32,000 nt of DNA from Microcystis aeruginosa NIES-843 (GCF_000010625.1 NC_010296.1:3600001-3632000); one strand, 5' to 3'. Positions 582 through 31,885 are shown, counted from the first letter of the stretch. Notes: generated by a model from the letters alone, not told the origin. A program made the numbers and translations.

Positions 582-2003
582 GGCTCTTCGTTACCCTTTA
601 TGCTAAATCAACATACAAGATGCCAAGATAACATACTTCTAACCCAAAAATTCCGAAAGTTTCTAAAGCCATAGCCTCTCCGTTTTATTAGTTTAAGTTT
701 ATTGTTGATTCCCTCGACCACCCCATTCGTTGTCCTTCGCTCGAAATAACTAATTATTTCTCCAAACCAGTTTCGGATTGTTTGACAACTCTTGGTAAAA
801 ACACTGGAGGATTTTGCCAACCATTCCGAGATGGATAGCATTCCCTCTGTCGGATTCTCTGAGGTTTCATAAATCTTTCTAAATTCTTCCTTTAATTCCT
901 GCATCTTTTTCAAATTTGGGAATTTTTCTTTGATAGCTTCTAGTTTAATTTTTTGGGGTTCCGTTAAATCTTCTTCATTTTTTAACAGGCTATATTTACT
1001 TCGCTTTAAAACTTCTAGCTTCGCTTCTTTTTCCGCTTTCTGTTTTTTATTTTTCTGCGCTTCTACGGCTCTTTTTTCTGCTCTTCTCTGTTCGTCTAAC
1101 TCTTGATTAATTTGTTTCATTACATGGAATCTATCGGCGACTACTTCGGCCGATGGCATCAATTCTTTCACCAAATTTTTATAAGGCAACCAAAGGTCTA
1201 TGCTCACTTCTTCAATTTGCTCTAACACCTCTTTTCCCCAGCCCGTAAGCGTTTCTCTCAACTCTTCTTGTGTTCGCTTCTCTAGAATAGCTATTAGTTT
1301 TCCCGTATCTAAATTTACTAAAACCGCACAGTAATTTTTTTGTCCTTTGACTAGAGCGATTTCATCAATTCCTAGTCTTTTTAATTCCGATAGGTCTGGC
1401 TCTGTAATTTCTTCGGCGATGTCCTCTATCATTCTTTGAATCTCTTCTTCCGTTACGTCATTTATTCGACTAACATTTAAAATATCTCCTTCTTTTAATT
1501 GTTCGAGTATATTTGCGGCTAGTCTTTTCGTATAGGTTCGTTTCTTGGCGACAAAATCTAACTCTTCGCTAAAGGGTCTCTGACAATTATCGCACTTAAA
1601 TTGACGACGATTAATTTGTAGGTATACTGGTTGACCTGAGATTGGTAAATCTTTGACTAAATGTCGATGATTTTGGTGGAGTTTATCGCTCTCTAACCCA
1701 CAACGAGGACAGGTTGCTTTTTGATTTTTCGATTCGATTCGGCAAACTATACCGATATTTTCTAGGTGTAGATAGCCTTGAATACAGGTTCCTTTTAGGT
1801 TCAAAAATTTGTCAAGTATCATAAGTAAAATAATCTCGTTTTTGGCTATTATATCAAATCTTAACTCAATTGTCTATCTTTTGGTATTAACCTGTTTGTG
1901 CCTTAAGTCCTTCCCTGTATGGATTTCAGCTACTTTTGAGCGTAGGCGCTCTCATCGAATTTTATTTTAAGTTAATTATTTGCATAACAATTCCCGAAGA
2001 GCC
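582..2003 (-). mobile_element. ISL3-family insertion sequence, apparently intact (1422 bp)
   Basis: The terminal inverted repeats begin GGCTCTTCG (582-590) and CGAAGAGCC (1995-2003). A perfect 8-bp direct repeat, ATGTTTTT, flanks the element at 574-581 and 2004-2011. One full-length transposase ORF lies inside. Confidence 0.9.
608..1822 (-). CDS. ISL3-family transposase
   Basis: The 404-aa ORF has N-terminal zinc-finger pairs (CPRCG ... CDNC) and an overall layout typical of ISL3 DDE transposases. It lies between the IRs described above. Confidence 0.85.
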   Translation of the reverse strand: MILDKFLNLKGTCIQGYLHLENIGIVCRIESKNQKATCPRCGLESDKLHQNHRHLVKDLPISGQPVYLQINRRQFKCDNCQRPFSEELDFVAKKRTYTKRLAANILEQLKEGDILNVSRINDVTEEEIQRMIEDIAEEITEPDLSELKRLGIDEIALVKGQKNYCAVLVNLDTGKLIAILEKRTQEELRETLTGWGKEVLEQIEEVSIDLWLPYKNLVKELMPSAEVVADRFHVMKQINQELDEQRRAEKRAVEAQKNKKQKAEKEAKLEVLKRSKYSLLKNEEDLTEPQKIKLEAIKEKFPNLKKMQELKEEFRKIYETSENPTEGMLSISEWLAKSSSVFTKSCQTIRNWFGEIISYFERRTTNGVVEGINNKLKLIKRRGYGFRNFRNFWVRSMLSWHLVC

Positions 2004-2293
2004 ATGTTTTTAATTTTGGTGAGTTAGGAAGATATGTAATTAATTGTGCGCCCACCGAGGTGGCAATAATTCTAGAGGGTGAATTGGGATAGAGCCAAAC
2101 CGGAAAAAGCTAAGATATGGCAAGATAAAAACTTAATGCTGACGGCTGACCAATATCAGACCTGATGCAGTATCTCTTTAGTCACCGGTCAAGCTGGGAT
2201 TTACTGAGAGTAAGCAATCTGCTAGAGTTTTAACGTTCGTTAAATTTCTCGGGCAGAGAAAACAAACAAAACCATAATGGTGTTAATGGGTGT

Positions 2294-4468: not shown

Positions 4469-5281
4469 ATGGTTTCTACTATCGCTAAACAATTTGAATT
4501 ATCGGGAATTGGCCTACATTCGGGGGAGATAACCCGGGTGCGCGTCTGTGGGGCAAATCCGGGGGAAGGACGTTATTTTGTCCGCAGAGATCTAGCCAAT
4601 CAACCGATTATTCCCGCTCTAGTTTCTTCGGTTTACCAAACGACTTTATCAACGGAATTGGGACAAGGAGAAGCCAAGGTCAGAACCGTTGAGCATTTAT
4701 TAGCGGCCTTAACCGCTTTGGGGGTAGAGGATGCTCGCATTGAGGTGGATGGTGCGGAAATTCCCCTCCTTGATGGTTCGGCCAAAATCTGGGTAGAAGC
4801 GATCGAAAATGCCGGTTTAAATAACTCTTTTTCTCCATCAGATTTAACGATTTCTCAACCGATTTGGTTGTACGAAGGAGATGCTTTTGTGGCGGCGATT
4901 CCTTCCCCTGAATTACGTTTTACCTACGGGATCGATTTTACCTATAAACCCATCGGTAATCAATGGTATAGTTGGAGTCCTGATCAGGAAAGTTTTAGTC
5001 AAGCGATCGCATCCGCCCGGACTTTCGGTTTTGCCGATCAAATTGAATATTTACAAAAGGCTGGTTTAATTAAAGGAGGCAGTTTAGAAAATGCTTTAGT
5101 CTGCGATCAAAATCAATGGTTAAATCCTCCTTTACGGTTTGAAAATGAGCCAGTAAGACATAAATTATTGGACTTAATTGGTGATTTGAGTTTACTGGGA
5201 ACTATTCCCACCGCTCATTACATGGCTTTTAAAGCCAGTCATAAACTTCACGTTCAATTAGCTAAAGCAATTCAGGGTTAA
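4469..5281 (+). CDS. lpxC: UDP-3-O-acyl-N-acetylglucosamine deacetylase
   Basis: The N-terminus ([19 protein letters not shown]...) and the rest of the 270-aa protein match the LpxC layout ([12 protein letters not shown]). I prefer the ATG at 4469 to the TTG at 4460. Confidence 0.85.
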
Positions 5282-5511: not shown

Positions 5512-5610
5512 GCATCGCACTTTAACCCACAGCTTCAATAAATGTGCATGGTGCGTTCCCCAAAATCGATTGGTGGAGCAGTGGGAGTCACATTAGGGAA
5601 CGCACCCTAC
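5512..5610. repeat. Hairpin repeat family, copy R1
   Basis: The 11-12 bp arms GGTGCGTTCCCC (5550-5561) and GGGAACGCACC (5596-5606) flank a ~34-nt loop. The same ~100-bp unit recurs at 24428/26466, 29281, 30199 and 30947. The terminal CCCTAC (reverse complement GTAGGG) supplies the TAG stop of the 5607..6713 gene. Confidence 0.85.
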
Positions 5611-6713
5611 AGCTGCCACACGGTCAACGGGTTCCACAATCGGAGGCGTCGCGTGCGCTTGCCATCTTCGACCACCGCTTCCCAGTTGCGGTAGGGCTGA
5701 GGTGGCTGGTACTTCCCCTGCCCTGGGTCGTACTGCCCCTCAACACCGGTAAGCGCCGACATCGAATTGGTCGCGGCGGCCTTGACACCATCGTCGGTGG
5801 CGCGAGAGCCCCCGAAGAAGTCGTTGCCCGGCCAAGAGACATGGTCCCAGGCGACCAAACTGTACAGGGCGCATCCAGAAAAATCGTCGCCCCGCTCCGC
5901 ATAGGCGACCGGGTGGCACAGCTGCGACTTCTCCTCGTTCCCCGGCAGCCGCAGCGGACGGACTATGAACGATATGCCTTCAATCTCGACGCGGGCGTTT
6001 TCGCACTCGCTGTACGGGTCGAAGTAGACGGCCTTCAGGTTTGGAAGAGAGGTGCCGTGCTCGGTCAAGAGTCTCTGCAAAGCCATCTGCAAATGCGCGC
6101 CAAGTTGACCCCGGAACGGACCGGCGAACTGCCCGCAGCCGAGGCCCGGTAAGGTCACGAAGGCGGATTGCGGCTTAGCTGCTCGGCAGTTTATATACCG
6201 GAAGACTGGCAAGAGTCTGCGCCGGTACAGGTTGTAGTACCCCTCTGTAGACAACCGCCCATCCGCCGCAGTCGCCTCGCTCCAATCGGCCGGGGTATTC
6301 CCCCAGCCATTACACAGGAGAGCGCCTGGAGTAAATACCAACATCGCCGAAAAGGGAGGTGCGTGCGGCGTCGGGGAACGATGGTTGCCGTCGTCGAAGA
6401 CGGTCACCGGTACAGCGATCGAGATATCGCCCAGTAGACCGAGTTCGGTCAGGTTCCAATCGGAGCCGTCTCCGGACACGGCCATCTCGGCGAAGATCTG
6501 AGGTCGCTTGGTGTCGAGCAACTTGCCGAGAAGCTCCAGTTCTGTCAGTGCTTGAAGGTTCGAGTCCTGGAGGCGCTCACGCAGACAGTCTCCAGGTTGT
6601 GTCCGGCTGGCTCGCAACCTTTCCAGGTAGTCCGAAGCACGGGCCACGGTCTCCCCTGGAATGATGATGGAGTACTTGGGGGCGATAGCGTCGCCCGAAG
6701 TGTGGATGGTCAT
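5607..6713 (-). CDS. GC-rich orphan protein of unknown function; weak PARG/macrodomain-like G-C-G-x-F loop
   Basis: The long ORF is visibly far more GC-rich than its surroundings and has GC-rich third positions. As a result it spawns five overlapping spurious ORFs on both strands. I place the start at the ATG at 6713 (MTIHTSG...), 8 nt after AGGAAG, where composition switches to AT-rich. The motif LPGLGCGQFAGP resembles the diphosphate-binding loop of PARG-type macrodomains. Confidence 0.7.
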   Translation of the reverse strand: MTIHTSGDAIAPKYSIIIPGETVARASDYLERLRASRTQPGDCLRERLQDSNLQALTELELLGKLLDTKRPQIFAEMAVSGDGSDWNLTELGLLGDISIAVPVTVFDDGNHRSPTPHAPPFSAMLVFTPGALLCNGWGNTPADWSEATAADGRLSTEGYYNLYRRRLLPVFRYINCRAAKPQSAFVTLPGLGCGQFAGPFRGQLGAHLQMALQRLLTEHGTSLPNLKAVYFDPYSECENARVEIEGISFIVRPLRLPGNEEKSQLCHPVAYAERGDDFSGCALYSLVAWDHVSWPGNDFFGGSRATDDGVKAAATNSMSALTGVEGQYDPGQGKYQPPQPYRNWEAVVEDGKRTRRLRLWNPLTVWQL

Positions 6714-7291: not shown

Positions 7292-8368
7292 ATGGTCAGC
7301 ACGATCCAAAAACCAGAATTCGAGGAAATCCGTCCGGGTATAAAAGTTCCCGCTAAAGAAACGATCCTCACTCCCCGCTTCTACACCACTGATTTTGAAG
7401 CGATGGCGGAAATGTCGATCGCCGCTAACGAGGAAGAACTGAAAGCGATTTTAGAGGAATTCCGTACCGATTATAACCGGCATCACTTCGTTCGTAATCA
7501 AGAATTCGATCGCTCTTGGGAGCATATTGATGGCGAAACTCGCCGCTTATTCGTGGAATTTCTGGAAAGATCCTGCACGGCTGAATTTTCCGGCTTTCTT
7601 CTCTACAAAGAACTCGGCAGACGTTTAAAAAACAGAAATCCCGTTCTCGCGGAATGCTTTAACCTCATGTCCCGGGACGAAGCGCGTCACGCTGGGTTCC
7701 TTAATAAGGCTTTATCGGATTTTAACCTCTCCCTTGACTTGGGATTTTTAACCAAAAGCCGTAACTACACCTTCTTTAAACCGAAATTTATCTTCTACGC
7801 CACCTATCTTTCCGAAAAAATCGGCTACTGGCGCTATATCACCATTTATCGTCATCTCGAACAACATCCCGAAGATCGGGTTTATCCGATTTTTAACTTC
7901 TTTGAGAATTGGTGTCAAGACGAAAACCGTCACGGGGACTTCTTTGATGCGATCATGCGCGCGCAGCCTGATATTCTTAATGATTGGCGCGCTCGTCTCT
8001 GGTGTCGTTTCTTCCTGCTTTCGGTCTTCGCTACTATGTATCTCAATGATACTCAGCGTTCTGGTTTCTACGCCATTCTCGGTTTGGACGCTCGCGAGTA
8101 CGATAAGTATGTGATCGAGAAGACCAATGAAACCGCCGGCCGCGTCTTCCCGATTGTTCTCGATGTGGATAGTCCTGAATTTTATGATCGCCTAGAGATT
8201 TGTGTTGGCAATAACGAGGGATTACGGGCGATCGATAGCGAAAACAGTCCCGCACCGGTTAAATTCCTGAAGAAATTGCCTATCTTCGCCTCTAACGCTT
8301 GGCAATTCCTCAAATTGTACCTGATGAAACCGATTCGGGTCGATAAATTAGCCGGTAGCGTCCGTTAA
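7292..8368 (+). CDS. acsF: Mg-protoporphyrin IX monomethyl ester oxidative cyclase (aerobic)
   Basis: The sequence matches the AcsF/CHL27 di-iron protein: TPRFYTTDF, two E..H motifs ([17 protein letters not shown]). I place the start at the ATG at 7292 ([10 protein letters not shown]); the upstream extension to 7199 looks non-native. Confidence 0.9.
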
Positions 8369-9173: not shown

Positions 9174-11834
9174 TTAATCCGAACTGAGGTTAACCACAGC
9201 TAATTCTAATGTTTGCTCTTCCTTTTCTAGCTCCTTTTTGCTAAAACTTAACACCTCATCTAGACAATCAATTACCACCGTATCCCCTTCCATAAAAGCT
9301 TGTTCGAGAATTTTTGTGGCTAAAGGATTCTCTAACTCCCGTTGGATAGCACGTTTTAAAGGTCGCGCACCGTAGGTGGGATCGTAACCAACAGTAACGA
9401 TATGATTTTCTGCAGCCGTAGTTAATTCTAGATTGATTTTTTGTTCTCCTAATAATCTTTCCAGACGCTGTAATTGCAGACGAACAATATAACGCAATTC
9501 TTCTTTTTTCAGGGTATGGAAAATAATTAAATCGTCGATACGATTCAAAAATTCGGGACGAAAATGACTCCGCAAAGCTGTTAAAACCCGTTTCCGCATC
9601 TCCTCATAATCGGCATCTTCGGAAACATTTAAAATATGGTCACTGCCAATATTACTGGTCATGACGATAATCGTATTCCGAAAATCCACCACTCGCCCCT
9701 GAGAGTCGGTAATGCGCCCATCGTCAAGCACTTGTAATAAAATGTTAAAAACATCCCGATGGGCCTTCTCCACTTCATCCAATAAAACCACAGAATAGGG
9801 ACGACGACGCACCGCTTCCGATAGTTGTCCCCCTTCCTCGTAACCCACATAACCCGGAGGAGCGCCGATTAACCGCGAAACCGCGTGTTTTTCCATGTAT
9901 TCCGACATATCGATGCGAACCATGGCTTCCTCGGAGTCGAACAGTAACCCTGCTAAGGCCCGCGCTAACTCGGTTTTACCCACTCCTGTGGGTCCCATAA
10001 ATAGGAATGAACCAATCGGACGGGAGGGATCTTTCATTCCTGCGCGTGCGCGTCGAATCGCCGCTGCTACTGCCGTGACCGCTTCATTTTGTCCGACAAC
10101 TTTTTTCTGTAAATGAGACTCTAATTCTAATAATTTTTGTCGTTCCGATTCCATTAAACGATTGACGGGAATTCCTGTCCACCGGGCAACGATTTCGGCG
10201 ATATCAGCATCAGTTACCTGTTGTCTTAATAGGGTCGAACCTGCCGCTTGAATAGTTTCTAGTTCTTTTTCTTTTACTTCTAATTCCCCCTGTAAAATCT
10301 CTAGTTTGCCATACTTTAATTGGGCCGCTTTATTGAGATCATAAGCTCGTTCCGCCTGTTCCACCTGTAGGCGCAATTGTTCTTCTTCCTCTCGCAATAA
10401 TTTAATTTCCTCGGCGATATGTTTTTCCGTTTGCCATTGGTCAGCGAGGGGCTTTTGTTTACTTTCTAATTCCTCAATTTCTTCGACAATTTTTTCTAAA
10501 CGCTCTTGAAAAGCTCGATCTTTTTTCTCCTCTTTTTCTAAGGAGAATTTTTCCATCCGTAACTGCATTAAGCGACGATCTATCATTTCCAAATCGGCGG
10601 GTTTAGTGGTACTTTCTACCTCTAATTTTGCCGCCGCTTCATCGACTAAATCGATCGCTTTATCCGGTAAAAAACGATCGCTAATATAACGATGGGATAA
10701 GGTAGCTGCTGCCACTAGGGCCGAATCGGTAATTGTCACCCCATGATGCACCTCATAACGTTCTTTTAAACCCCGGAGAATCGAGATAGTATCCTCCACG
10801 GAAGGTTCCTTAATATAAACCTGTTGAAAACGTCTTTCTAAAGGGGGATCTTTTTCAATATGATTGCGATATTCATCCAAAGTTGTCGCCCCAATACAGC
10901 GCAATTCTCCCCGAGCTAACATAGGTTTTAATAGGTTGCCTGCATCCATCGATCCCCCTTCCCTAGAACCCGCACCGACAACGGTATGCAGTTCATCAAT
11001 AAAGAGAATAATTCGCCCTTCTGATTGGGTAACTTCTTTCATGACTGACCGCAATCTTTCCTCAAATTCGCCTCGATATTTTGCCCCAGCGATTAAACTT
11101 CCCATATCGAGGGAAATTAACTGACGATTTTTCAAAGATTCGGGAACATCTCCGTTAATAATCCTTTGGGCTAATCCTTCCGCAATAGCGGTTTTTCCTA
11201 CTCCCGGTTCACCGATTAAAACCGGGTTATTTTTCGACCGTCGCGAGAGGACTTGTACCACCCGTCGAATTTCTTCATCGCGACCGATAACCGGGTCTAA
11301 TTTGCCTTCTTTGGCCGCCGCTGTTAAATCCCGGCCATATTTATCTAAAGCTTCGTATTTTTCCTCTTGATTGGGTTCAGTAACCTTTTGAGTACCGCGA
11401 ATAGCTTTGATGGCTAATTCTAAATCTTGGGGGTCAAGATTGAAAGTGCGTAAACATTTCCGGCCAACCCTTTCATCTTCGGCAAAACCGACGAGAAGAT
11501 GTTCGACGGAGATAAATTTATCTTGCCAACTTTCCCGGGATGCTTCCGCTCGATCGAGCAGCAGATCAAGACCACGACCTAGGTATAATTGATCGACGAT
11601 GGCCACTTTCGGCTGTCGGTTGGTGAAGACTTCTAGCTGTTGTTGCAGTCGGGGAATTTCAATATTAGCTTTTTGTAAAATCCGGGTGGCTAGACCGTTA
11701 TTCTGCTCTAGGAGGGCAATAATAACGTGTTCCACCTCTAAGGTCTGGTTTTTGAAGCGTCGCGCAATTTCTTGCGATTTAACGATTGAATCCCAAGCTT
11801 GTTCGGTAAATTTATTCGAGTCTGTGGGTTGCAT
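9174..11834 (-). CDS. clpB: ATP-dependent chaperone ClpB
   Basis: Two AAA+ modules are present (GEPGVGKT and GPTGVGKT Walker A motifs), with a long coiled-coil middle domain and a Clp_N repeat. I place the start at the ATG at 11834 ([14 protein letters not shown]...). Confidence 0.93.
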
Positions 11835-11934: not shown

Positions 11935-11972
11935 GGGTGTGGGGTGTAGGGTGTGGGGTGTAGGGTGTGGGG
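11935..11972. repeat. G-rich heptamer tandem repeat (GGGGTGT/AGGGTGT)
   Basis: The sequence is gggtgtggggtgtagggtgtggggtgtagggtgtgggg. The same heptamer forms the core of the MITE family in this window. Confidence 0.9.
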
Positions 11973-11990
11973 AGAATAAATAAAAAAGTC

Positions 11991-12032
11991 TCCTATCTCC
12001 TATCTCCTATCTCCTGACTCCTATCTCCTGAC
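11991..12032. repeat. Heptamer tandem repeat (TCCTATC/TCCTGAC) x6
   Basis: Six consecutive heptamers, read directly from the sequence. Confidence 0.9.
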
Positions 12033-12397
12033 TTGAAAATAGAAGCTGAAATAAGGCAAATTCGTCAATCATACGGCCATCCGTTGAGTATAGGCTACAT
12101 ATCAGGAGAGGCACTCCTGCGAGTGAAGTGACTCTCAAATTATTACAGATGCGTCAGCGGCTGCGTGTAAGCATCCCACCGAAAAACTAATGCGCGGGGG
12201 GTTTGGGGGGTTCTACCCCCCAAAAGCTTGGATTGAGTAATCAGATCTGAAGTAATACGGCCATCCGTTGAGTCTAGGCCACATATCAGGAAAGAAACTC
12301 CTGCAAAAGGGGGAATAAATAATCAGTTTTTAATAACCGGATTTAGGATCAGAATATTTTCATGCTTGACGGTGTAACTTGTTGCATCGGGACTGAC

Positions 12398-17777: not shown

Positions 17778-19198
17778 ATAAGCTGTCCCCCTCCAGAGAC
17801 TTGAGTAAAAATACTTAGCTGGTGAAGGTTGTCTCGGTGGCCGCTAGGGGGGTCTTGAGACCCCTAATTATGAAAAAATAGGAATTGTTGGAAAACTTAG
17901 GCGAGTGGACTGTTCGACCATGGATCAATCGGTAATGATTTGGTAGTAGTGGCGTAGCCCTCTTGCTTACCTGGTATGAATTGTGTAAAATATTTATTAA
18001 TAAAAATAATGGTTCTTCCGAACTTACCATGTAAAATCAACTAGCAAAATGCCAATTTAATAAACATCTAAGACGGGAGCAAGTCAAAGCTGAAGAACAA
18101 ATAAACTACTTGACAAAAGCATCAATTGGGTATGGGATAGAGAAAAGAGTGGGGAAAAGACAAAAATGACTCCAGAGCAACAACAAGAACTTAACCAACA
18201 TATTCAAGCGATAGCCAAGATTCTTCATCAGGAAGCTGAGGCTGAAAAAATCCAAACTTTAGAGGGAATAGAGACGACAATAAGAGAACAGACCTGAAAA
18301 TATATAACTCCGAAACTAGGATTTTTTTTGGTCACAAAAACGACAGGAACTCAAGCCGGGAGACCGAGAAAAATAAAAAGCATCATCGGAGAATTATGCC
18401 TGACAGAAAAACAAGCAATCCGTTTAAATATTCCTCGTAATAACCAAATTAGTCCTTACTTAGAACGCTGTTGTTTAAGAGCTAGTGCCAATGTTTCTTA
18501 TGAAAATGCCGCCAGAGATCTTCAATTTTATACAGGGATGAAGGTCTCGGCTAGTGGGACTTAAACAAATTTCAAGCCCAAACAAAGCCTAAACTGGCTT
18601 TGTAAGCGGCAAACACATCCCGATTCTCGGTCAGCCACTCAAAGAAACGGAAAGACATCGCTGTCCGAAAAGCTTCCAAGGCTTCCACAAAAGTGTTTAA
18701 AGGTCGATTCGCCCACTGCCTTTGCAATCCCCCAGTTAACTGATGCCACAGGATAAATGTATAGGCACAAAACACCAAGATAAAATGACGAAGTAAGCTT
18801 CGTTTATCCCTGACTTGATATTCCCTTAACCCTAACCATCCTTTGGCTTCTCGGTAGAATACTTCCACCCAATTTCTTTCGGTGTAAGTCCTCACTATCC
18901 ACGACGCTGTTACTGTATCTGCCTCAACTACATTGGTGATGAAATAGTCCACCTCTGTGGCTTTTTCCATTGAACTTGCATTCATGACGATCGCCAAGTT
19001 CCTTTCTCCTTCTAGTTGAGATATTTTCGCTCTGAATACCGCTACCCAAACCGTTTTTTCTTTATCTAGATTTAGGGTGATTTTCTCCCAATCCTTTTCT
19101 GATAGGCTTTTTGCTAGTTGCTCAAGCTGGATTGTTTCTTCCACACCCCCTTCTTTTTCAATAATTACTTTTCGATTTTTTGCCAATCCTCCTAAGTA

Positions 19199-19412
19199 GG
19201 GCTGGCTGAATAAATCTAAAAAGTTTGTTGGATAAGGTTTTTAGGCTTTTTTGACCTCAAAAAGTGCCTAGCCTTGGAGTGATCGGGGGTAAAATTCCTG
19301 GACTTTTTCCCTGAAAATTAGGTAATTGACCACCTGAAAATGAGTAAAACCCCACACCCCACACCCCACACCCCACACCCTGCCACCACCGAAAAACTTT
19401 TTCAGCAGACCC
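19199..19412 (-). mobile_element. G-rich-core MITE, copy A (214 bp)
   Basis: The ends are GGGTCTGCTGAAAAAG... and ...TTCAGCCAGCCC (imperfect IRs). The 6-bp TSD is TACTTA (plus strand TAAGTA at 19193-19198 and 19413-19418). The core is (GGGGTGT)4. Confidence 0.85.
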
Positions 19413-20788
19413 TAAGTATTTTAGCTTTCTTTCTTCCAGGGCTTTGAGAAAATTTGTGTTGTTGCCATAACCAGCATCTATTAAGACGATTTTCGGTCGA
19501 TAGCCTCTGGTTAAGCTCCGGTCAATTAAATCTATCGCTATCTCTGGTTTCTTCTTAAATTCTTTGTCTTCTTTCCCCTCGGCTAAGGAACTAGCCGGTT
19601 GATAAATTTCCCTGTCTAGGGGTACACTTTTTTTGCCGTCGTAGAGATGGGTAGTGACGGCGACTATTCCGTTGTCTGTCTTGCCAATTTCTCCTAGGTA
19701 CTGCCTGCCAACTCCGGCGGTCAGATTGCCACTTTTTCGATGTCCTGAGTCATCGACAATCAGGGAAAATCCTCGGGGGATTTGCGTCTGGCGGCATTGG
19801 TTCATCACTTGCAACCGACATTCATTCACCTGACGGTCTGACCAAGGAGATTCGGTCAAAAAGTGATGTAATCGGTTATAAACTACTCCGACGGCATTAT
19901 TGGCCATTTGAGTGAGGTTTTTCCTCTCACTTTCCCCTAATAATCCTCCTAAATAGGGCTGGCTGAATAAATCTAAAAACCTTGTTGGATAAGACTTTTG
20001 GACTTTTTTCCCCTCAAAAAGTACCAGATATGGGAGTGATCAGGGGTAAATTCAGGGACTTTTTCCCTGAAAATTAGGTAATTGACCCCCTCAAAATCGG
20101 TCAAACCCCACACCCGTTACAGTAGAGCAGGAAGTCGCCTTCCCACCCCCTGCTTCAAAACCGGACTTACGACTTTCGCCGTATCCGGCTCCTGAGTAAC
20201 TAGGCTACTGTCATTAGTAGAATAATAATGGGAATTATTATTTCCTTGTCTATTCAACCCTCTTGGCTGTATCCCCACCAGACAAGATTGTTGGTTTTAG
20301 GGCGTATATGACCGTTGATTGTTGCTTAGACTTCCTAGTTACCCGTCCTTTGTCAGCATATCTTTGATATTACTCAAAGCCTTGGCTTTTAAGGACATCC
20401 TCTCCCTCTATTGACTTGCGGATGGTTTCCTACTGCCCCGAACGGGCAGAGTCAATCAGGGTTACTTCGTTCCCTATAACCATTGGTTGAACCCTTAGGA
20501 TGATACTGTCCACAACAGAGTAACGGGAATGCCTTACTGATAGTGGTATGAGCTATCAGCCCCAACTCTGTTAACTTTTGTTTCGAGCCTGTCAGCCTTT
20601 TGGCTCGTGGGTGTTGACGATGGTTAATTCGTATCTTCGCCCCAGGGCTATCCATAGGTTCTGGCTCAACGGGTTTCTGATTTAGGCTATCAGATACCGC
20701 TTTTTTTTCCTCGCTCACTACCTCAGATGTACCAAGTCTAAAGCAGCAGGAAATGCCGTCACTCTAGGCATCTAGAGGACAGGACTAA

Positions 20789-21930
20789 TACCATTTTTCT
20801 AAATTCCTGACAGACATAGAGCTTCTAAAATCCAAGACCATCCCGTCAAATACCCGATCGTGTCATTGGATAGAGAATTTAAAAGATGGTAAAGTTTACT
20901 TCTTAAGTTATCAAGGGAGTTAAAATTGCCCCAGGCCAATAGGTTTTTCAAATATAGCCAAACTCTCTCAATTGGATTTACTTCTGGACAATAGGGAGGT
21001 TGATAAAATAGGATAATATTATCAGGTATTTCTAGGTCGGTCGCCGTATGTGCGGGAGCATTATCTAATTGAATAATATGTAATTCCTCAGAAAAAGCTT
21101 GAGAAAAAAGCGTTAAATATTGATTAAAACATTCCCCATCTAAATGAGAAAATTCATAGAAAAAACTGCTACCTGTTCGAGGTTCTATTAAACCATAGAG
21201 CCAGAGATATTGAAAATTATACTGAAAATTACCAAGGGGCTTTATGCCTTTAATTGTTATTTTATCTCTGACAATGGTATGACAGCCGAAGCGACTTTCA
21301 TCTTGACACCAGAAGCGGACTTTTAAATATTGACTAACTTTTTCAGATTCCTTTTCTAGTAAAGCTTGTAGCTGTTCAGATAGATTATTTTGGAATATTT
21401 TTACTTCTCCTGGTAATTGTTTTAAATTTTGAGGTCGAGCCACTTTTAATTTAGCTTGTAATTCATTTCTTACGAGACGGTAAACAGTTATATAACTGGT
21501 GGGTATTTCTAAAATAATTGATACCCAAAAATGAATTTCTTTATAACTTTGAAATCCTTCTGGGTCTTTTAATTCATTCTGAATTAGAGCGGCTTCTTCC
21601 ACTGAAATCTTTTTGGGTCTTCCCAGTTTTTCTGGTTCTGACAAGAGATTTTCTATCCCTCCTTCTCGATAACAACTTAACCAGCGATGAATAGTTCTTT
21701 CTGAGCGTCCTATTAACACGGCGAGATGACGAACCGTTTCTACCTCCTTAATTTTTAGTAGATACAGGGATTGTACTTTAGCAAAGTTTAAAGAGGTTAC
21801 TTGTTGCTTCAACAAGGATTTTAAGTCTTCTACTGACTCAGCAACATTAATATTAGGGACTCCACTCATTGCCTTTTTACCACACAAACTATACCTTTAC
21901 CAAGTATGACATACTTTTTGAAAAATGGTA
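20789..21930 (-). mobile_element. IS630-family insertion sequence (innermost shell)
   Basis: The IRs are TACCATTTTTC (20789-20799) and GAAAAATGGTA (21920-21930). The flanking TA(A) duplication lies at 20786-20788 and 21931-21933. The uninterrupted intron copy reads GGACTAAGGTTAT across this site. Confidence 0.85.
20799..21869 (-). CDS. IS630/Tc1-mariner-type DDE transposase
   Basis: The ORF has N-terminal HTH domains and a DDE region (WCQDESRFG ... LDNAPAHT ... PPYCPEVNPIERVW). I place the start at the ATG at 21869. Confidence 0.85.
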   Translation of the reverse strand: MSGVPNINVAESVEDLKSLLKQQVTSLNFAKVQSLYLLKIKEVETVRHLAVLIGRSERTIHRWLSCYREGGIENLLSEPEKLGRPKKISVEEAALIQNELKDPEGFQSYKEIHFWVSIILEIPTSYITVYRLVRNELQAKLKVARPQNLKQLPGEVKIFQNNLSEQLQALLEKESEKVSQYLKVRFWCQDESRFGCHTIVRDKITIKGIKPLGNFQYNFQYLWLYGLIEPRTGSSFFYEFSHLDGECFNQYLTLFSQAFSEELHIIQLDNAPAHTATDLEIPDNIILFYQPPYCPEVNPIERVWLYLKNLLAWGNFNSLDNLRSKLYHLLNSLSNDTIGYLTGWSWILEALCLSGI

Positions 21931-23192
21931 TAAGGTTATTACTAACCCGCACCTGTAGGGTTATAAAGTTATCAAGGTACTACATTTACCAAGCGGCTAA
22001 TCCTCTAAACGTCTTACTGTCTAGTTTCTAGCCAACGAATCGCACCACACCCCACACCCTACACCCTGCCCCTAGGAAAAACTTTTTCAGCAGACCCTAA
22101 ATATTGTCTGAAGCCGTTTTTTTGCGCTTCGTTTTTGAAGCAATTGTCAAACCGCCGACACCATCGGTCAAAGCATGGGGGCATTGCGGCTGGGGTTGTC
22201 TCTTTCATCGCTGATCTTTCAACGTAAAGTGCTTACTCTTTAACGATTATACTCGATTTGATCTTTATTTGGCGTTTAAGTCCCACTAGGACTCAACAAC
22301 GATTAGTCCATCGCCACCAATTTGCCGAAGAAGAATCAGGAAACCCCGTTCAAGAAATTAGTCTAGATGGAGGAAAAGTGCGCTTAAGAACCGAAACTAA
22401 GGGAGAGGCTTGTATCTGGAAAGATTATCAAGCAATCTGTGTTGATACTTTCCTAAGAAAAGCTTGGTTTGGAGAGAATGAATCGTTAATATATTGGGTT
22501 AATCAACAACCTTTATCTGACCCCCTTACCTGTTTGGGAGACGGACATCCCGGTATTGGGAAAATTGTGAAAAACTGGGATTGTCCAGGAGAAAAAAGAG
22601 AAATACTTGACTGGTTTCATTTGGTAGAAAATCTTCATAAAGTCGGCGGTTCAGTGAAGAGATTGAAAAAAGCAGCAAGTTTATTATGGCAGGGCAAAAT
22701 TGAGGAAACAATAGCATTAATCTCTCCTTTAAAAAACGAACGAGCTGAAAATTTCTGTCGTTATTTAGAGATTCATCGTCATCGAATTGTTAATTATAAT
22801 TACTATCAACAAGAAGAGATTTGCTCTATTGCTTCGGGAGCCGTTGAATCCACGGTTAAACAGATTGACCGACGACTGAAAATTTCTGGAGCCCAGTGGA
22901 ATGAAGAAAATATCCCTCAAGTGCTTAAACACCGCTGTGCTTACCTAAATAACAGTCTTTAGCTATTGAATAGTATTTATGTTCTGACAAAACTGACTTG
23001 CTCCCTGTATCCTCCCCCATATCACGCCCAAAAGCGTGTTAGCCAGATTAGCTTACTGCAAAGAGCCTCCTTTAAGGAGACTTATCACAGAAGCCTTCTG
23101 GGAATGTAGCAAAGATTCTTGTATCTGGCTGCACTTTGTCACAAAATTTCACTATTATTTCGGGTAAGGTATCGTAAATCCCTTGATAGATA

Positions 23193-24191
23193 GGGTTTAC
23201 TGAAAAAGTTTGTTGGTGGGGCTAGGGTGTGGGGTGTGGTGCGATTCGTTGGCTAGAAACTAGACAGTAAGACGTTTAGAGGATTAGCCGCTTGGTAAAT
23301 GTAGTACCTTGATAACTTTATAACCCTACAGGTGCGGGTTAGTAATAACCTTAGTCCTGTCCTCTAGATGCCTAGAGTGACGGCATTTCCTGCTGCTTTA
23401 GACTTGGTACATCTGAGGTAGTGAGCGAGGAAAAAAAAGCGGTATCTGATAGCCTAAATCAGAAACCCGTTGAGCCAGAACCTATGGATAGCCCTGGGGC
23501 GAAGATACGAATTAACCATCGTCAACACCCACGAGCCAAAAGGCTGACAGGCTCGAAACAAAAGTTAACAGAGTTGGGGCTGATAGCTCATACCACTATC
23601 AGTAAGGCATTCCCGTTACTCTGTTGTGGACAGTATCATCCTAAGGGTTCAACCAATGGTTATAGGGAACGAAGTAACCCTGATTGACTCTGCCCGTTCG
23701 GGGCAGTAGGAAACCATCCGCAAGTCAATAGAGGGAGAGGATGTCCTTAAAAGCCAAGGCTTTGAGTAATATCAAAGATATGCTGACAAAGGACGGGTAA
23801 CTAGGAAGTCTAAGCAACAATCAACGGTCATATACGCCCTAAAACCAACAATCTTGTCTGGTGGGGATACAGCCAAGAGGGTTGAATAGACAAGGAAATA
23901 ATAATTCCCATTATTATTCTACTAATGACAGTAGCCTAGTTACTCAGGAGCCGGATACGGCGAAAGTCGTAAGTCCGGTTTTGAAGCAGGGGGTGGGAAG
24001 GCGACTTCCTGCTCTACTGTAACGGGTGTGGGGTGTAGGGTTTTACCCATTTTCAGGCGGTCAATTACCTAATTTTCAGGGAAAAAGTCCCTGAATTTTC
24101 CTCCCAATCACTCCAATCGCTGGTACTTTTTGATTTCAAAAAAGTCTAAAAATATTATCCAACAAGGTTTTTAGATTTATTCAGCAACCCC
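23193..24191 (+). mobile_element. G-rich-core MITE, copy C, carrying an intact group II intron
   Basis: The ends are GGGTTTACTGAAAAAG... and ...TTCAGCAACCCC. The 6-bp TSD TAGATA lies at 23187-23192 and 24192-24197. Confidence 0.85.
23239..24023 (+). mobile_element. ORF-less group II intron (self-splicing ribozyme retroelement), copy 2, 785 nt
   Basis: The 5' end is GUGCG. Domain V is GAGCCGGAUACGGCGAAAGUCGUAAGUCCGGUUU (23948-23981), with the AGC triad, a GAAA tetraloop and a 2-nt bulge. Domain VI has a bulged A (24017) 7 nt from the 3' end, which terminates ...AC. An AT-rich stub hairpin sits where the IEP ORF would be. Confidence 0.8.
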
Positions 24192-24427
24192 TAGATAGGC
24201 AAGCGTTTCAATCGGGACTAACTTCTGGGAAACCCGCTATATATCTCCTGCAAAAATCAAAAACCTTCCGTTAGGTTAGGAGAATCCGAGACAGGAGAAG
24301 AAAAAAGACATGAAAAATTTAGTACAAAAGCTCTACTCTCCCTGCTCTGGCGCTCCCTAGCTTACCAGAGGTCGATTATTCACTAAATGGTATCAAAAAA
24401 ATCGGGTCTAAAACCTCGTCTTTACTC

Positions 24428-24477
24428 ATTTTATTGTAACGGGATTTGGGATCACAACTTCAATAAATGTGCATGGT
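24428..24477. repeat. Hairpin repeat family, copy R2, left part (split by IS1380)
   Basis: The sequence ttattgtaacgggatttgggatcacaacttcaataaatgtgcATGGT matches the left half of copy R5. Confidence 0.8.
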
Positions 24478-26465
24478 CCCGCATTTCTCACAAACTGAAT
24501 TAAGAACCTAATTTGGAGGTTAAAAGTTGGTGTTTTTCAAAAATAAGAGAAACCCGCCTAGTTATCAAGGAATAATCTGACTAAACTAATCAAAAAATTC
24601 CTGAATTACTGGAAAAATTCCGTCAATTAGGGAAAATGTTCACGACAAAGTTAGCTGAATTTATAAGCAGCCATTTTTAAGACTATTTAATGATCTTTGA
24701 AAACTCTTCAACTTATCCAGTTCCCGCTATCGCTTGAATTCTAGAGTAAGCTATCGCTAAAATATCTTGATAGGGACAAGAACTGGCAATTGCGATTAAA
24801 ATTCTTCTGACACTAACAGTAATTCTAGCTCCTAATTTAAGGAAATTAAGGCGAATTGTTCCCACTGTCGCTTTGGCAAAAGAAGTTTTAGCCAAACAAT
24901 TTTGACGAAAAGCTTGCATTAAAACATAAGCCATTGATGACAACCAAAGTCTTAATTGATTACTCTCAAATGTCTGTGTCGAATTCCGGTCAGCAAATAA
25001 GTCTAATTGTTGCTCTTTAATTCGATTTGACCTCTCACCTCTGGGGCAATATTTTTCAGTGTAAAGTTTAGATGGGGGAATCTTTGATGCAGGTAAAGAA
25101 GTCACAACGTGGCGAATTTTTACGCCCTCACTACCAGGACAAACTTTTGTCACCACTCTTCTTGAACGGCTCCAGGATTTTTGGGTTTGATAACATAGGG
25201 AACGATACCAAGTCGATTCTGGTACCAATTTCGCCAATTCTCCTAACTCTTCATCGGGAGAAAATAACGTCTCCATTAATTCAGTAACTGGCTGAAGTCT
25301 TTGCTCGTAATCTGCCTTAGCTTTCTCAATTACATCGGTCGCTCGTAATTTTAATTGACTATTCGTTGCCATTGCTAAAACATAATCAACTCCTGCTTGA
25401 CTTTCGCAAAATTTCATGATATCTTCACGGGAATAGGCACTATCTCCTCGTACTAATATCTGCGTATCTGACCATTTTTCTCGAATTATACCGATTATTC
25501 GCTGCAATTCTTCTAATGCTCCCCCAGCAGTATCTACATGAGAAGACCGGAGTTTAGCTACTAATAAATGATGCTCACAGAAAATATACAAAGGAGCATA
25601 ACACACTCCTTTATAATAAGTATTGAAAAACGCTCCCTCTTGATTTCCATGCACTTGGTCATCGGTGACATCCATGTCTAAAATAATTGGTTTCGGTGGC
25701 TTTTTGTAGGATTCTAGAAAGATGTCCACAAAAGCTTTTTCAATTTCTTTGGGGTTAGGCTCGATTTTATGGTAACGACTGTTCTCTTGATTGATGACTG
25801 TTTCCGGACAATATTCTAGTCGATTAATTGTACTTTTTCCCGCTAAATTTGCTTGGGCTGAGTCAATAAAATTTAGTTTTTTCAATGCTATTGCTAAAGC
25901 TGGAGCATGACGTAATTTATCATGATCATTGACATCCTCATATCCCAAAACTATCCCATAAACTCTTTGTGCGAGTAGTTCATGAACTGAATAATCTAGA
26001 TAGGATGAATTTCGATAATCTCGAAAACATTCGGCAAACCGAGCCGTTATTTTTAGCTTTTGGTCTAACTCTGCCATCAAAATAATTCCTGCATCTGAGG
26101 TGATTTTTCCTCCCTCAAAATTAGCGATTACTTGTCTTCCATTGAGGTTTCCAAAATTTAATTGATTGAGTCGAGACTGGTCTGAACTAGGAGTCATAAA
26201 CTTGACATACTTTAAATAGTTTTAATGATTAAATTATAGCAAGCTTTTGACTTCATTCTCTACTTAAAATTGAGACTTTATCAACTAATTAACCTAAAAA
26301 TACTCATTTTAAATTTGTTCTTTTTTCAAGGTCTAATTGATGATGAGCTTAAGTTGAATCCTAACAACACACTGTCGTTTTTGCTACAAGGCGATCACCC
26401 AGTCAAAACCCAGATTTTGTAAGGCTTCGGGGGTTGGTGATCGTACTTTTTGTGAGAAATGCGGG
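24478..26465 (-). mobile_element. IS1380-family insertion sequence (1988 bp), inserted into hairpin repeat R2
   Basis: The 17-bp perfect IRs are CCCGCATTTCTCACAAA (24478-24494) and its complement (26449-26465). The 5-bp TSD ATGGT lies at 24473-24477 and 26466-26470. Excision restores the repeat consensus gtgcATGGTgcgttcccc. Confidence 0.9.
24713..26197 (-). CDS. IS1380-family DDE transposase
   Basis: The 494-aa ORF has an N-terminal FEGGKITSDAG motif, LGYEDVNDHD, and a C-terminal YCPRGE..NRIKEQQLDLFADR motif, all typical of IS1380. Confidence 0.85.
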   Translation of the reverse strand: MTPSSDQSRLNQLNFGNLNGRQVIANFEGGKITSDAGIILMAELDQKLKITARFAECFRDYRNSSYLDYSVHELLAQRVYGIVLGYEDVNDHDKLRHAPALAIALKKLNFIDSAQANLAGKSTINRLEYCPETVINQENSRYHKIEPNPKEIEKAFVDIFLESYKKPPKPIILDMDVTDDQVHGNQEGAFFNTYYKGVCYAPLYIFCEHHLLVAKLRSSHVDTAGGALEELQRIIGIIREKWSDTQILVRGDSAYSREDIMKFCESQAGVDYVLAMATNSQLKLRATDVIEKAKADYEQRLQPVTELMETLFSPDEELGELAKLVPESTWYRSLCYQTQKSWSRSRRVVTKVCPGSEGVKIRHVVTSLPASKIPPSKLYTEKYCPRGERSNRIKEQQLDLFADRNSTQTFESNQLRLWLSSMAYVLMQAFRQNCLAKTSFAKATVGTIRLNFLKLGARITVSVRRILIAIASSCPYQDILAIAYSRIQAIAGTG

Positions 26466-26546
26466 ATGGTGCGTTCCCCCAAAATCGATCGCTGGAGCAG
26501 TAGGACTTGCATTAGGGAACGCACCCTACAGCGATAGCGATCGCAC
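26466..26546. repeat. Hairpin repeat family, copy R2, right part
   Basis: The sequence is ATGGTgcgttccccc...attagggaacgcaccctac, followed by agcgatagcgatcgcac. Confidence 0.8.
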
Positions 26547-27135: not shown

Positions 27136-28555
27136 GTAGGGCTGTTTCATTCTCCCATCAGAATATCAAAAGTAAAAGCGATCACTGTCAGGTAAAATGA
27201 TAAGTGACCGCCAACTTTTCAAACATATGTTGAGCTTAATAGAAAAACTAAAACAAGTCAAGGACTTTCGGAAAGATAAAGGAAAAAGACACCCTTTATG
27301 GATAGTATTAATAGTAATAATACTGGGAACAATGCTAGGATACTCAGGTTATAGAGAGCTAGGAGAGTTCGCTAAAAATAATCGGCACAGGCTCAGTCAA
27401 GAATTTAACATAATTCCAGAAAGAGTCCCATCCTATTCAACAATTAGAAGGGTAATGATGGGAGTTGAATGGCAGATTTTGTTAAAAATGTTTAATGAAT
27501 GGGCATTACAAGAATATGGACAAAGAAGTGATATAAATTGGCTAGGCATAGATGGAAAAAGTCTCAAAAATACCCTAAAGAATCCTAACAATGAACAACA
27601 AAATTTTATTATGTTTGTCTCATTGTTTATTCAAGAAAGTGGATGAGTATTACACTTAAAAAGAATCGAAAACAAAAAAGGGTCTGAAATCGACGAAGAT
27701 CAAGCTATAATTCAGGATTGCTCTCTCCAAAATAAAGTTTTTACTGGCGATGCTTTACACTGTCAGAAAAAAACAATCAGCTTAATAGCCAAGAGTAAAA
27801 ATGACTATGTTATCACCGTTAAAGGAAATCAGAAAAATCTTTATAAGCGAATACAAGACCTGAGTAATTCCTCAAAGCCAGAAAGTTGCTTTCTTGAACA
27901 AAATAATAGTCATGGTCGAAAAATATCCAGAAAAATAGAAGTTTTTAAAGTGAGGAAAAATGAAAGACAAGGGTTTGAAAATCTGCGCCGAATTATTAAA
28001 GTAGAAAGAAGGGGTAGTCGCGGGGATAAAACTTATGAAGAAACAGCTTACTATATCAGTAGCCTAACCGAATCCGCCCAAGTATTTGCTAAAATTATTC
28101 GAGGACATTGGAAAATAGAAAATCAGTTACATTGGGTAAAAGATGTAATTTTTGAGGAAGATAAAAGCGAGATAAGTGATTTTCAAGCGGCCAGCAATTG
28201 GTCAATTCTCACAACTATAGGATTGAATCTTTTCAGAGGTTTGGGTTTTCTCTCAATAACAGAGGGACAGAGGTGGTTAGCTGAACGTTGGGAAAAACTG
28301 ATAGTTTTATCGACGTAAGAAGCAGAAAAATTAGCTAAATTAACAGGATGTACTCTCAGAAAATTTGAAGAGAGATAGGCTTTTAGTGGCTTGGGAACAA
28401 GCTTTATCAATTTATTCATAATCAATATTGGCAGAGGATTAAAGATTAGTTATTGTCACTAACTTTTTTGATTAGAAAAAGATAAACTTGAGAATTTTCA
28501 TTCAAATTTATTGACTCAAAATCCGCTGTACTTAATTTAAATGAATCAACCCTAC
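27136..28555 (+). mobile_element. ISAs1-family insertion sequence (1420 bp)
   Basis: The IRs are GTAGGGCTGTTTCATT (27136-27151) and AATGAATCAACCCTAC (28540-28555). The 9-bp TSD TAAGGTAAT lies at 27127-27135 and 28556-28564. Confidence 0.9.
27197..28318 (+). pseudogene. ISAs1-family (H-repeat-associated) transposase with a single in-frame TGA
   Basis: The ORFs 27197..27646 and 27950..28318 are in the same frame. The only stop between them is the TGA at 27644-27646. The C-terminal HWKIENQLHWVKDV motif is typical of ISAs1. Confidence 0.8.
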
Positions 28556-29280: not shown

Positions 29281-29380
29281 GCATCGCATTTAAACCCACA
29301 GCTGCAATCAATGTGCATGGTGCGTTCCCCCAAAATCGATCGGTGGAGCAGTAGGAGTCACATTAGGGAACGCACCCTAC
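29281..29380. repeat. Hairpin repeat family, copy R3
   Basis: The arms lie at 29319-29331 and 29366-29376. The left flank gcatcgcatttaaacccacagctgcaat and right flank ccctacggctgc match subfamily R1. Confidence 0.85.
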
Positions 29381-29427
29381 GGCTGCGTTGTTAGACCGCG
29401 CCTCACCGAATCTCTTCTAGCACTGGC

Positions 29428-30198: not shown

Positions 30199-30296
30199 GC
30201 TTCAATCAAGGTGCATGGTGCGTTCCCCAAAAATCGATCGCTGGAGCAGTAGGAGCCACATGAGGGAACGTACCCTACAAGATCGGCGATCTCACC
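30199..30296. repeat. Hairpin repeat family, copy R4
   Basis: The arms lie at 30217-30228 and 30264-30274, with one G-T mismatch. The right extension ctacaagatcggcgatctcac encodes the tail and stop of the DUF5615 pseudogene. Confidence 0.85.
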
Positions 30297-30946: not shown

Positions 30947-31072
30947 TTTTATTATAACAGGATTTGGTATCACAACTTCAATCAATGTGCATGGTGCGTT
31001 CCCCAAAAATCGATCGGTGGAGCAGTGGGAGCCACATTAGGGAACGCACCCTACGAGATCGGCGATCGCACT
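30947..31072. repeat. Hairpin repeat family, copy R5, plus a partial right-end copy at 30924-30937
   Basis: The arms lie at 30993-31004 and 31040-31050. The right extension ctacgagatcggcgatcgcac encodes the tail (RVRSPIS) and stop of the DUF2442 gene. Confidence 0.85.
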
Positions 31073-31675: not shown

Positions 31676-31885
31676 GGGTCTGCTGAAAAAGTTTTTCGTG
31701 GGGACAGGGTGTGGGAACAGGGTGTGGGGTGTGGGTTTTTACCGATTCTCATCTGGTCAATTACCTAATTTTCAGAGAAAAAGTACCTGAATTTTCCCCG
31801 ATCTCTCCCAGAACTGGTACTTTTTGATTTCCAAAAGGTCTAAAAGTCTTATCCAACAAAGTTTTTAGATTTATTCAGCAAACCC
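31676..31885 (+). mobile_element. G-rich-core MITE, copy D (210 bp)
   Basis: The ends are GGGTCTGCTGAAAAAG... and ...TTCAGCAAACCC. The 6-bp TSD TATTTA lies at 31670-31675 and 31886-31891. Confidence 0.85.

Follow-up and report, generated by a model that had tools for sequence, protein, structure and literature searches.

The closest described parallels to the element reported here, an open reading frame (ORF)-less group II intron in a 32,000-nt stretch of the Microcystis aeruginosa NIES-843 genome (NC_010296.1:3600001-3632000; hereafter the window), are the TeI3 introns of Thermosynechococcus elongatus (Mohr, Ghanem and Lambowitz 2010, PMC2882425). TeI3 is likewise a cyanobacterial intron of class IIB, it uses an intron-encoded protein (IEP) in trans, as we infer for Microcystis, and one of its copies is interrupted by an insertion sequence (IS). 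The ORF-less TeI3 introns also have the same anatomy, with remnants of the ORF ends around a deletion in domain IV (DIV), and relaxed-specificity 'driver' IEPs have been documented in T. elongatus (PMC2882425). However, the parental IEP-encoding TeI4 introns are close and lie in the same genome, and mobility was shown experimentally, while the Microcystis intron is known from sequence alone and a close parent was not found. The TeI families have diverged to different targets, whereas the Microcystis family has kept one repeat target. The second precedent is RmInt1 of Sinorhizobium meliloti (PMC5894124), whose natural homing site likewise lies in a multicopy mobile element, ISRm2011-2, and the number of its targets follows that host element. 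RmInt1 occasionally enters ectopic sites with similar intron-binding sites (IBS), comparable to a methyltransferase site described below. However, RmInt1 has its own IEP, of a different class without En domain, and a unique IS target; the Microcystis intron is ORF-less and enters a tandem heptamer that also occurs outside the mobile element.

Two groups of IEP-encoding introns complete the comparison. Introns on the plasmids of Fremyella (AP018240), Acaryochloris (NC_009926) and Aphanizomenonaceae (CP150887), the closest DNA matches outside Microcystis, are 57-62% identical to the Microcystis ORF-less intron in domains I to III (DI-DIII) and nearly identical over the first 27 nt, with homologous exon-binding site (EBS) loops and domains V and VI (DV, DVI). 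They differ in carrying an ORF of 570-607 aa (RT-X-D-En) and in having unrelated targets. A full-length intron of M. aeruginosa itself (P0160/P0162; NIES-2549, CP011304) shares species, broad class and residence in mobile DNA, here a tnpB gene. However, its EBS1 pairing is GAUAGA/TCTATC and it is only ~52% identical, and it is not the parent but at best a heterologous driver.

We consider, with a probability of about 85%, that the element of the window is an ORF-less IIB intron that homes into (GGGGTGT)n repeats, both inside a MITE, or miniature inverted-repeat transposable element, and free-standing, with an IEP from elsewhere, and that its two copies in the window, B and C, are recent independent insertions. 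A full-text literature search returned no report of a Microcystis MITE housing a group II intron, or of such an intron targeted to heptamer repeats, and the specific case seems undescribed. The elements of the mechanism are all established (PMC2882425, PMC5894124). An earlier note on this DNA, made from the sequence alone, had regarded the homing of an intron into a MITE as new in concept; RmInt1 in ISRm2011-2, the ORF-less introns of T. elongatus and the IEP-encoding Microcystis intron in tnpB are precedents for it.

Structure and class of the intron

The intact copy, B, and its domains are placed as follows (coordinates are those of the window; nt numbers are those of the intron).

23239-24023, plus strand: ORF-less group II intron copy B, intact, 785 nt (Rfam RF00029; helices of the minimum free energy (MFE) fold; alignment of DI-DIII with 7-8 IEP-encoding cyanobacterial introns)
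~23239-23675, plus strand: DI, ~nt 1-437 (MFE helices)
23678-23735, plus strand: DII, nt 440-497 (MFE helices)
23743-23794, plus strand: DIII, nt 505-556 (MFE helices)
23795-23945, plus strand: DIV stub with an 11-bp closing stem, nt 557-707 (MFE fold)
23897-23918, plus strand: AT-rich hairpin inside DIV (MFE fold)
23948-23981, plus strand: DV, catalytic hairpin with AGC triad, nt 710-743 (Rfam)
23986-24020, plus strand: DVI, nt 748-782, in which one A, the branch point at 24016 (nt 778), is bulged (Rfam, MFE fold)

The intron starts with GTGCG at 23239 and ends in ...CTACTGTAAC, with 24023 as the last base. These ends, GUGCG and ...UAAC, agree with the group II consensus GUGYG/AY, and all full copies have the same boundaries. 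The Rfam model Intron_gpII (RF00029, DV-VI; gathering score 40 bits) matches the last 78 nt of copy B with 55 bits (E = 2e-8), and an equal match of 55 bits at 20116-20193 on the minus strand belongs to copy C. Seven nucleotides follow the bulged A of DVI. The 785-nt RNA has an MFE of -259.5 kcal/mol (z = -5.1 against dinucleotide shuffles) and six domains are present in the fold. The Rfam models for D1-D4 reached at best 26.7 bits on the intron, under threshold. DI-DIII align over their full length with IEP-encoding cyanobacterial introns at 50-62% identity, and the IEPs of these relatives have RVT_N, RT, GIIM and HNH domains. The use of EBS3, described below, makes the intron IIB-like. From alignment and predicted fold, 23239-24023 is an ORF-less group II intron of the chloroplast-like IIB class with a complete DI-DVI ribozyme.

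The earlier note had described a 785-nt group II intron with a 5' GUGCG, this DV and a bulged A 7 nt from the 3' end, and its coordinates were correct. Its statements that a reverse transcriptase (RT) ORF is lacking and that an AT-rich hairpin occupies DIV were confirmed as well. Two of the checks that it had proposed, the folding into group II domains and EBS-IBS complementarity with the MITE core, came out in its favor, the latter with 6 + 6 bp plus a pair between EBS3 and G(+1).

Exon-binding sites and the recognized target

Homologous position, together with covariation between the loops of each relative and its exons, served to assign the three EBS. Seven relatives were retrieved (Fremyella, Aphanizomenonaceae, Gloeothece, Oscillatoria, Planktothrix, Acaryochloris and PCC 7120), and the Microcystis full-length intron was also aligned.

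23525-23530, plus strand: EBS2, ACACCC, within the segment AACACCCAC
23589-23594, plus strand: EBS1, CAUACC, in the 9-nt loop CUCAUACCA of the hairpin 23579-23603
23631, plus strand: EBS3, C, pairing with G(+1), the first base of the 3' exon

EBS1 pairs with GGUGUG at exon positions -6 to -1, including one G-U pair. The homologous loop forms a perfect 6 bp with the exon in Aphanizomenonaceae (GUCGCC/GGCGAC), Acaryochloris (CCAGUA/TACTGG), PCC 7120 (UAGCGA/TCGCTA) and the Microcystis full-length intron (GAUAGA/TCTATC), 5 bp in Fremyella and 5/6 in Planktothrix. EBS2 pairs with GGGUGU at -14 to -9; its homologous segments pair at -13 to -9 in PCC 7120 (UGCAA/TTGCA) and Oscillatoria (UUACG/CGTAA) and at -14 to -8 in Acaryochloris (AUCAUUA/TGATGAT). 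The EBS3 column lies in the conserved context GUGGA-N-AG and is Watson-Crick with position +1 in seven of seven introns (C/G, C/G, G/C, U/A, U/A, C/G, G/C); one further column (194) passed a looser test in this search. EBS1 and EBS2 of the Nostoc UHCC 0926 intron and EBS1 of the Oscillatoria intron gave weak or ambiguous pairings and were not used as support.

Given these predicted pairings, the recognized site is GGGUGU-NN-GGUGUG^G, that is, two units of the (GGGGTGT)n heptamer. The pairing uses heptamer bases only and no bases of the MITE arms. Since the EBS read two heptamer units, any array of at least two units would be a homing site on its G-rich strand.

Host repeats in the window

Both intron copies of the window lie in a MITE, and empty targets are present in the same window.

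23193-24191, plus strand: MITE copy B, occupied; arms 23193-23238 and 24024-24191, 214 bp without the intron; target-site duplication (TSD) TAGATA, 23187-23192/24192-24197
19946-22097, minus strand: MITE copy C, occupied; arms 19946-20115 and 22046-22097; TSD TAAATA, 19940-19945/22098-22103
20116-22045, minus strand: intron copy C, the same 785 nt split after nt 115, 100% identical to copy B
20789-21930, minus strand: IS630-family element of 1142 bp inside intron copy C; transposase ORF 20799-21887 (362 aa), terminal inverted repeat (TIR) TACCATTTTTC, TTA/TA duplication
19199-19412, minus strand: MITE copy A, empty, in a transposase gene; three overlapping cognate sites at 19352-19380; TSD TAAGTA, 19193-19198/19413-19418
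31676-31885, plus strand: MITE copy D, empty; one cognate site at 31720-31734; TSD TATTTA, 31670-31675/31886-31891
11935-11972, plus strand: free-standing heptamer array upstream of clpB, unoccupied; four pattern matches, of which 11942-11956 and 11956-11970 have G at -1

The MITE copies were located by BLAST with the reconstructed empty element. Four are found in the window, of 210-222 bp and with no ORF, and further copies occur in other assemblies. The TIR pattern TAGGGNYTGCTGAAWAA has 8 occurrences (0.14 expected), which are exactly the eight MITE ends. In each copy a G-rich heptamer array is flanked by arms of ~45 bp on the left and ~165 bp on the right. The host repeat is a true MITE, being short, non-coding, multicopy and bounded by TIRs, with 6-bp TSDs specific to each copy. 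NIES-843 is known to harbor MaeMITEa, of 219 bp and 240 copies (Kaneko et al. 2007, PMC2779907). The MaeMITEs are likewise multicopy, TIR-bounded and free of ORFs, and the host MITE fits MaeMITEa in size. That paper mentions no intron in connection with MaeMITEs.

Intron copies B and C are both bordered by GGGTGTGGGGTGTG^GGGTGTGGGG, and MITE copy A carries the joined-exon sequence without interruption. For the target pattern GGGTGTNNGGTGTRG the window has 12 matches where 0 would be expected; they are spread over five arrays, of which two are occupied. The earlier note had recognized a ~210-bp MITE as host and its copy A as an unoccupied copy with joined exons, which holds, and had overlooked the fourth, empty copy at 31676-31885. 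It had taken the array at 11935-11972 for a near-cognate site, but two sites in it match the consensus of occupied sites fully.

Distribution and insertion sites

Outside the window, full copies of 784-786 nt, 98.6-99.7% identical over the full length, were found in M. aeruginosa PCC 9443 and two metagenome contigs (L012 and L015). The 5' 36-mer of the intron is present in seven metagenome or whole-genome shotgun contigs; a scan of viral contigs with the same 36-mer gave no match. The M. aeruginosa metagenome-assembled genome (MAG) M131, a GTDB representative, has nine exact matches to the DV sequence, always at contig ends, which gives at least nine copies; 102-117 nt were recovered from each of the nine, and their DV-DVI sequence is identical. 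MAG S20 has a decayed copy without DV. The first loci retrieved held no 5' junction of the ORF-less intron.

A census of 19 insertion sites was drawn from the window, PCC 9443, MAG M131, MAG S20 and metagenome contigs. The MITE accounts for nine of them (copies B and C, L015, L019 and, of the nine M131 copies, five) and G-rich repeat arrays elsewhere for another nine, of which L001 is in a different G-rich repeat (GGGAAATGGGGGAGTGGGG); the loci were chosen for containing the intron and the assemblies are fragmented, so the ratio of MITE to non-MITE sites and the occupancy are rough. Several of the non-MITE array sites are followed by TAACTGA-type repeats. The remaining site (L003, in MAG M131) is inside a methyltransferase ORF. 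All ten 5' exons, among them those of copies B and C, L012, L013, L014, L015, L016, L018 and L019, end in (A/G)GGGTGT(G/A)GGGTGT(G/A)^, L014 being identical to L017 and counted once. As to paired and spacer bases, the ten vary at the unpaired position -8 (G/A), and one has A at -1. The 3' exons start with GG in 16 of 16 cases. On these pairings and sites, the predicted homing target is the heptamer repeat and not the MITE, and MITE specificity is ruled out even with a biased sample. Placing the homing site in the MITE, as the earlier note did, was right as to its G-rich heptamer core and wrong as to specificity, 10 of the 19 sites being elsewhere.

At L003 (SFCA01000100.1, minus strand, 3' exon from nt 890 to 1) the intron lies in motif I (...G^GTGTARI...) of a class-I S-adenosylmethionine methyltransferase ORF (Pfam Methyltransf_11, 1.6e-18). 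This is probably an ectopic intragenic site where splicing would matter; the 3' exon is the only one available. L013 was considered as the orthologue of the array upstream of clpB in the window, an idea that was dropped, since BLAST found no shared flank.

Evidence for independent insertion of copies B and C

Copy C consists of the first 115 and the last 673 nt of copy B, with a 3-nt overlap (TTA), and the two are identical at 785 of 785 positions. The earlier note had reported two identical copies, and the identity stands, but copy C is broken by the 1142-bp IS630-family element, and the note left its span of 1930 nt unexplained. Motif and orientation within the MITE are also the same in the two copies, as it had said. 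However, the heptamer register is not, copy B having two units upstream and two downstream, and copy C three upstream and one downstream.

The arms of MITEs B and C are ~86% identical (they differ by ~14%), against 100% for the introns. The inverted-repeat identity between the two loci runs from 21 nt upstream of the 5' splice site to 11 nt past the 3' splice site, stopping within the heptamers, and the TSDs of the two MITEs differ. Since old MITE arms surround identical introns and the identity ends in the heptamers, separate homing events into old MITE copies are indicated. Group II introns make no target duplication on insertion, and none was seen at these insertions. This pattern argues for B and C as independent insertions, and against hitch-hiking on the MITE, by which the earlier note had thought that the intron could spread.

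The IS630-family element in copy C encodes a transposase with a DDE_3 domain (Pfam, 6.7e-17) and N-terminal helix-turn-helix (HTH) domains. DDE_3 with HTH, short TIRs (TACCATTTTTC) and insertion at TA place it in the IS630 family. A second such element, 74% identical overall and with a near-identical right end, lies at 3411-4555 of L014 (same site in L017). Both interrupt the intron after nt 115, at one and the same TA (AACCTTA^GTCC; site AACCTTAGTCC), in intron copies at unrelated loci. This suggests that a variable DI hairpin region contains a sequence-specific hot spot for IS630 elements. Spread of an IS-bearing intron as a composite was rejected, the IS of L014/L017 being only 74% identical to that of the window.

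Loss of the ORF

Two ORFs of 88 aa over the intron have no Pfam match, and no RT ORF is present in it. The 5' part of the DIV stub carries a degenerate IEP start region and ~12 recognizable N-terminal codons (from 23832), with ATG changed to ATA. Here GGTCATATACGCCCTAAAACC...TGGTGG, 3' of DIII, corresponds in the alignment to the relatives' IEP start region (...ATATGTCTAAAAC...GTGGAATGG). At the other end the last 33 IEP codons are kept, in a frame that runs from 23921 through DV/DVI to a stop at 24020-24022, 1 nt short of the last base of the intron, and reads TNDSSLVTQEPDTAKVVSPVLKQGVGRRLPALL before the stop. This frame is identical to the C-terminus of the Fremyella IEP at 12 of 22 positions (tblastn), and the Fremyella ORF likewise crosses DV/DVI and stops a few nt short of the intron end. 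As read from this alignment, the intron is an ORF-deletion derivative in which remnants of both ORF ends border a single deletion in DIV. The near-uniform length and the 98.6-99.7% identity of the full copies in PCC 9443 and the two metagenome contigs point to one deletion event followed by spread.

A relative of 1129 nt in Nostoc sp. UHCC 0926 (pn1, L011, 3501-4629) has the same 5' 22 nt and only a 207-aa ORF in DIV. It may represent an intermediate step of ORF loss in a separate lineage.

Possible source of the intron-encoded protein

An intron without ORF must obtain its RT/maturase from another intron in the cell, and mobilization in trans would be the most economical reading of identical ORF-less copies. 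NIES-843 has seven group II RTs of two types (PMC8934634). A homology search with the Fremyella IEP had no Microcystis protein among the 120 matches listed, and tblastn of an IEP against PLSDB had no Microcystis plasmid among the top records. The Gloeothece IEP as query found RT-X-En proteins of 586 aa in M. aeruginosa NIES-2549, NIES-2519 and NIES-2522. The corresponding full-length intron is 99.8-99.9% alike at three loci (L027, L028 and L029). At each of these (nt 1956-4320) it follows codon 10 of an IS605-family tnpB (MLKAFKYRIY^..QPTSEQ), and the outer flanks differ; an autonomous M. aeruginosa intron thus also homes into multicopy mobile DNA. The idea of a close IEP-encoding parent in the databases was dropped, as the search with the retained C-terminal peptide gave no full-length IEP.

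Mode of spread and alternative explanations

The course of events that we propose would begin with an ORF deletion in a chloroplast-like IIB intron, leaving the ribozyme, the IEP start region with its ~12 degenerate codons and the last 33 codons. The (GGGGTGT)n arrays would serve as targets both as the internal microsatellite of an abundant MITE of ~214 bp and as free-standing intergenic repeats, and the intron would insert into either kind by retrohoming (reverse splicing with reverse transcription), with an RT/maturase supplied by another intron in the cell. Copies B and C would be recent independent insertions into two old MITEs, one of them struck later by the IS630-family element. The anatomy of the ribozyme, its EBS/IBS pairings, the census of sites, the remnants of the ORF and the identity of the copies are shown by the sequences compared; retrohoming as the mechanism, the IEP in trans and activity at the present day are what we infer from them.

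Several observations weigh against this proposal. The cognate IEP was not found: among 5.8 billion protein clusters, the retained C-terminal peptide matched only two small ORFs inside ORF-less copies. No RT gene lies within the 32,000-nt window or the retrieved Microcystis flanks (Pfam; tblastn with a related IEP), the sole tblastn match being the C-terminal remnant that overlaps DV. The Microcystis full-length intron is ~52% identical to the ORF-less intron in DI-DIII, and its ORF stops inside DV, unlike that of the ORF-less lineage. Copies that are decayed or hit by an IS are known at L013, L014/L017 and L020 and as copy C of the window. The census, finally, has the bias given above.

One alternative is that the family arose by retrohoming and is now stranded, that is, that no compatible IEP is left and the copies are inert relics that neither splice nor move. 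The missing cognate IEP, the distance of the resident full-length intron and the many copies broken by ISs or deletions agree with it. It is less easily reconciled with two 785-nt copies in one genome without a single difference, with nine M131 copies of identical DV-DVI and with a divergence between strains of only 0.3-1.4%, and driver IEPs of relaxed specificity are documented in T. elongatus (PMC2882425). We consider this alternative unlikely, though of the rivals it survives best.

A homing site specific to the MITE, with spread mainly by riding on MITE transposition, is improbable and already largely refuted. It would account for the placing of both window copies, PCC 9443, L015 and five of the nine M131 copies in the MITE in a single orientation, and the MITE is abundant, with 240 copies in NIES-843 if it is MaeMITEa (PMC2779907). 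Against it stand the 10 of 19 sites outside the MITE, the EBS pairing with heptamer bases only, and copies B and C, where arms of ~86% identity surround introns of 100% identity and both registers and TSDs differ. A DNA-level route of spread in place of retrohoming, in which heptamer arrays recombined ectopically or exchanged sequence by gene conversion, or segments were duplicated, could draw on the tandem repeats at the flanks and on the large inverted repeat that the window copies form 1.2-2.6 kb apart. It is very improbable, because the GUGCG...AAC junctions are exact in every copy at many unlinked loci of several strains, conservation in the exons coincides exactly with the bases pairing to EBS1, EBS2 and EBS3 whereas the unpaired -8 varies, and flank co-duplication is limited to 11-21 nt of repeat.

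A more far-reaching form of our proposal, retrohoming of the ORF-less intron into heptamer arrays, is possible and can be put forward only tentatively. It would make the intron an 'orphan' across M. aeruginosa strains, driven by a heterologous IEP (that of the ~52% identical intron), with guides tuned to a slippage-prone heptamer microsatellite, in a network of parasites nested at three levels. If so, each array would offer several phased targets and repeat expansion would keep regenerating empty sites, and the network would comprise the intron, the array-carrying MITE and IS630 elements with their repeated insertion at one TA of the intron. The current understanding of group II intron mobility is unchanged by this case. 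Its interest would lie in a route by which a minimal retroelement without its own enzyme could reach high copy number in a bloom-forming cyanobacterium, its address being a tandem repeat multiplied by a MITE. It would provide a natural example of retargeting to a repeat motif and a system in which to ask how far an RT/maturase can act on a foreign ribozyme; the apparent lack of a cognate IEP and the use of a microsatellite as address are the points that could raise its value. For genome work, the intron accounts for the breaking of contigs at these MITEs in assemblies of Microcystis, and it is a further, unannotated class of repeat in a genome whose plasticity was ascribed to ISs and MITEs.

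Other repeats and mobile DNA around the intron

G-rich arrays outside MITEs are regularly followed by a short spacer and a second heptamer array (L005, L008, L012 and L020; window 11973-12040). The second array is of the CTCCTAT type at window 11973-12040 and of the TAACTGA or GATAACT type at the other loci; TAACTGA-type intergenic repeats are known from Microcystis (PMC4679880). A GC-rich palindrome of ~35 nt (...CCCCCCCGACATCGGGGGG...) is found within some of the heptamer cores, in MITEs as well as in free-standing arrays, as in L016 (~7400-7480 and ~11200-11280) and L019 (~5080-5160). This is apparently a further small element with the same G-rich arrays as its insertion sites.

The region 18500-26200 of the window is a dense nest of mobile DNA, with two IS remnants under MITE A, the IS630-family element and MITEs A, B and C. 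MITE copy A splits a transposase gene into a C-terminal part (18572-19186, DDE_Tnp_1-like) and an N-terminal part (19420-19907, DDE_5). MITE copy C adjoins the same IS remnant as copy A, and the two resemble each other in the 12-13 nt beyond their left ends (AATCCTCCTAA[G/A]TA). The nest also contains an ORF without Pfam match (22258-22962) and an intact DDE_Tnp_1_4 (IS4/IS1634-like) transposase gene (24713-26197), and a DDE_Tnp_1_assoc ORF lies just downstream (27197-27646). Finally, a repeat of ~96 nt with an internal palindrome (GGTGCGTTCCC...GGGAACGCACC) is present in five copies (5532-5627, 26451-26546, 29302-29397, 30200-30295 and 30976-31071); it is a second family, MITE-like or like repetitive extragenic palindromes (REP), and is unrelated to the intron.

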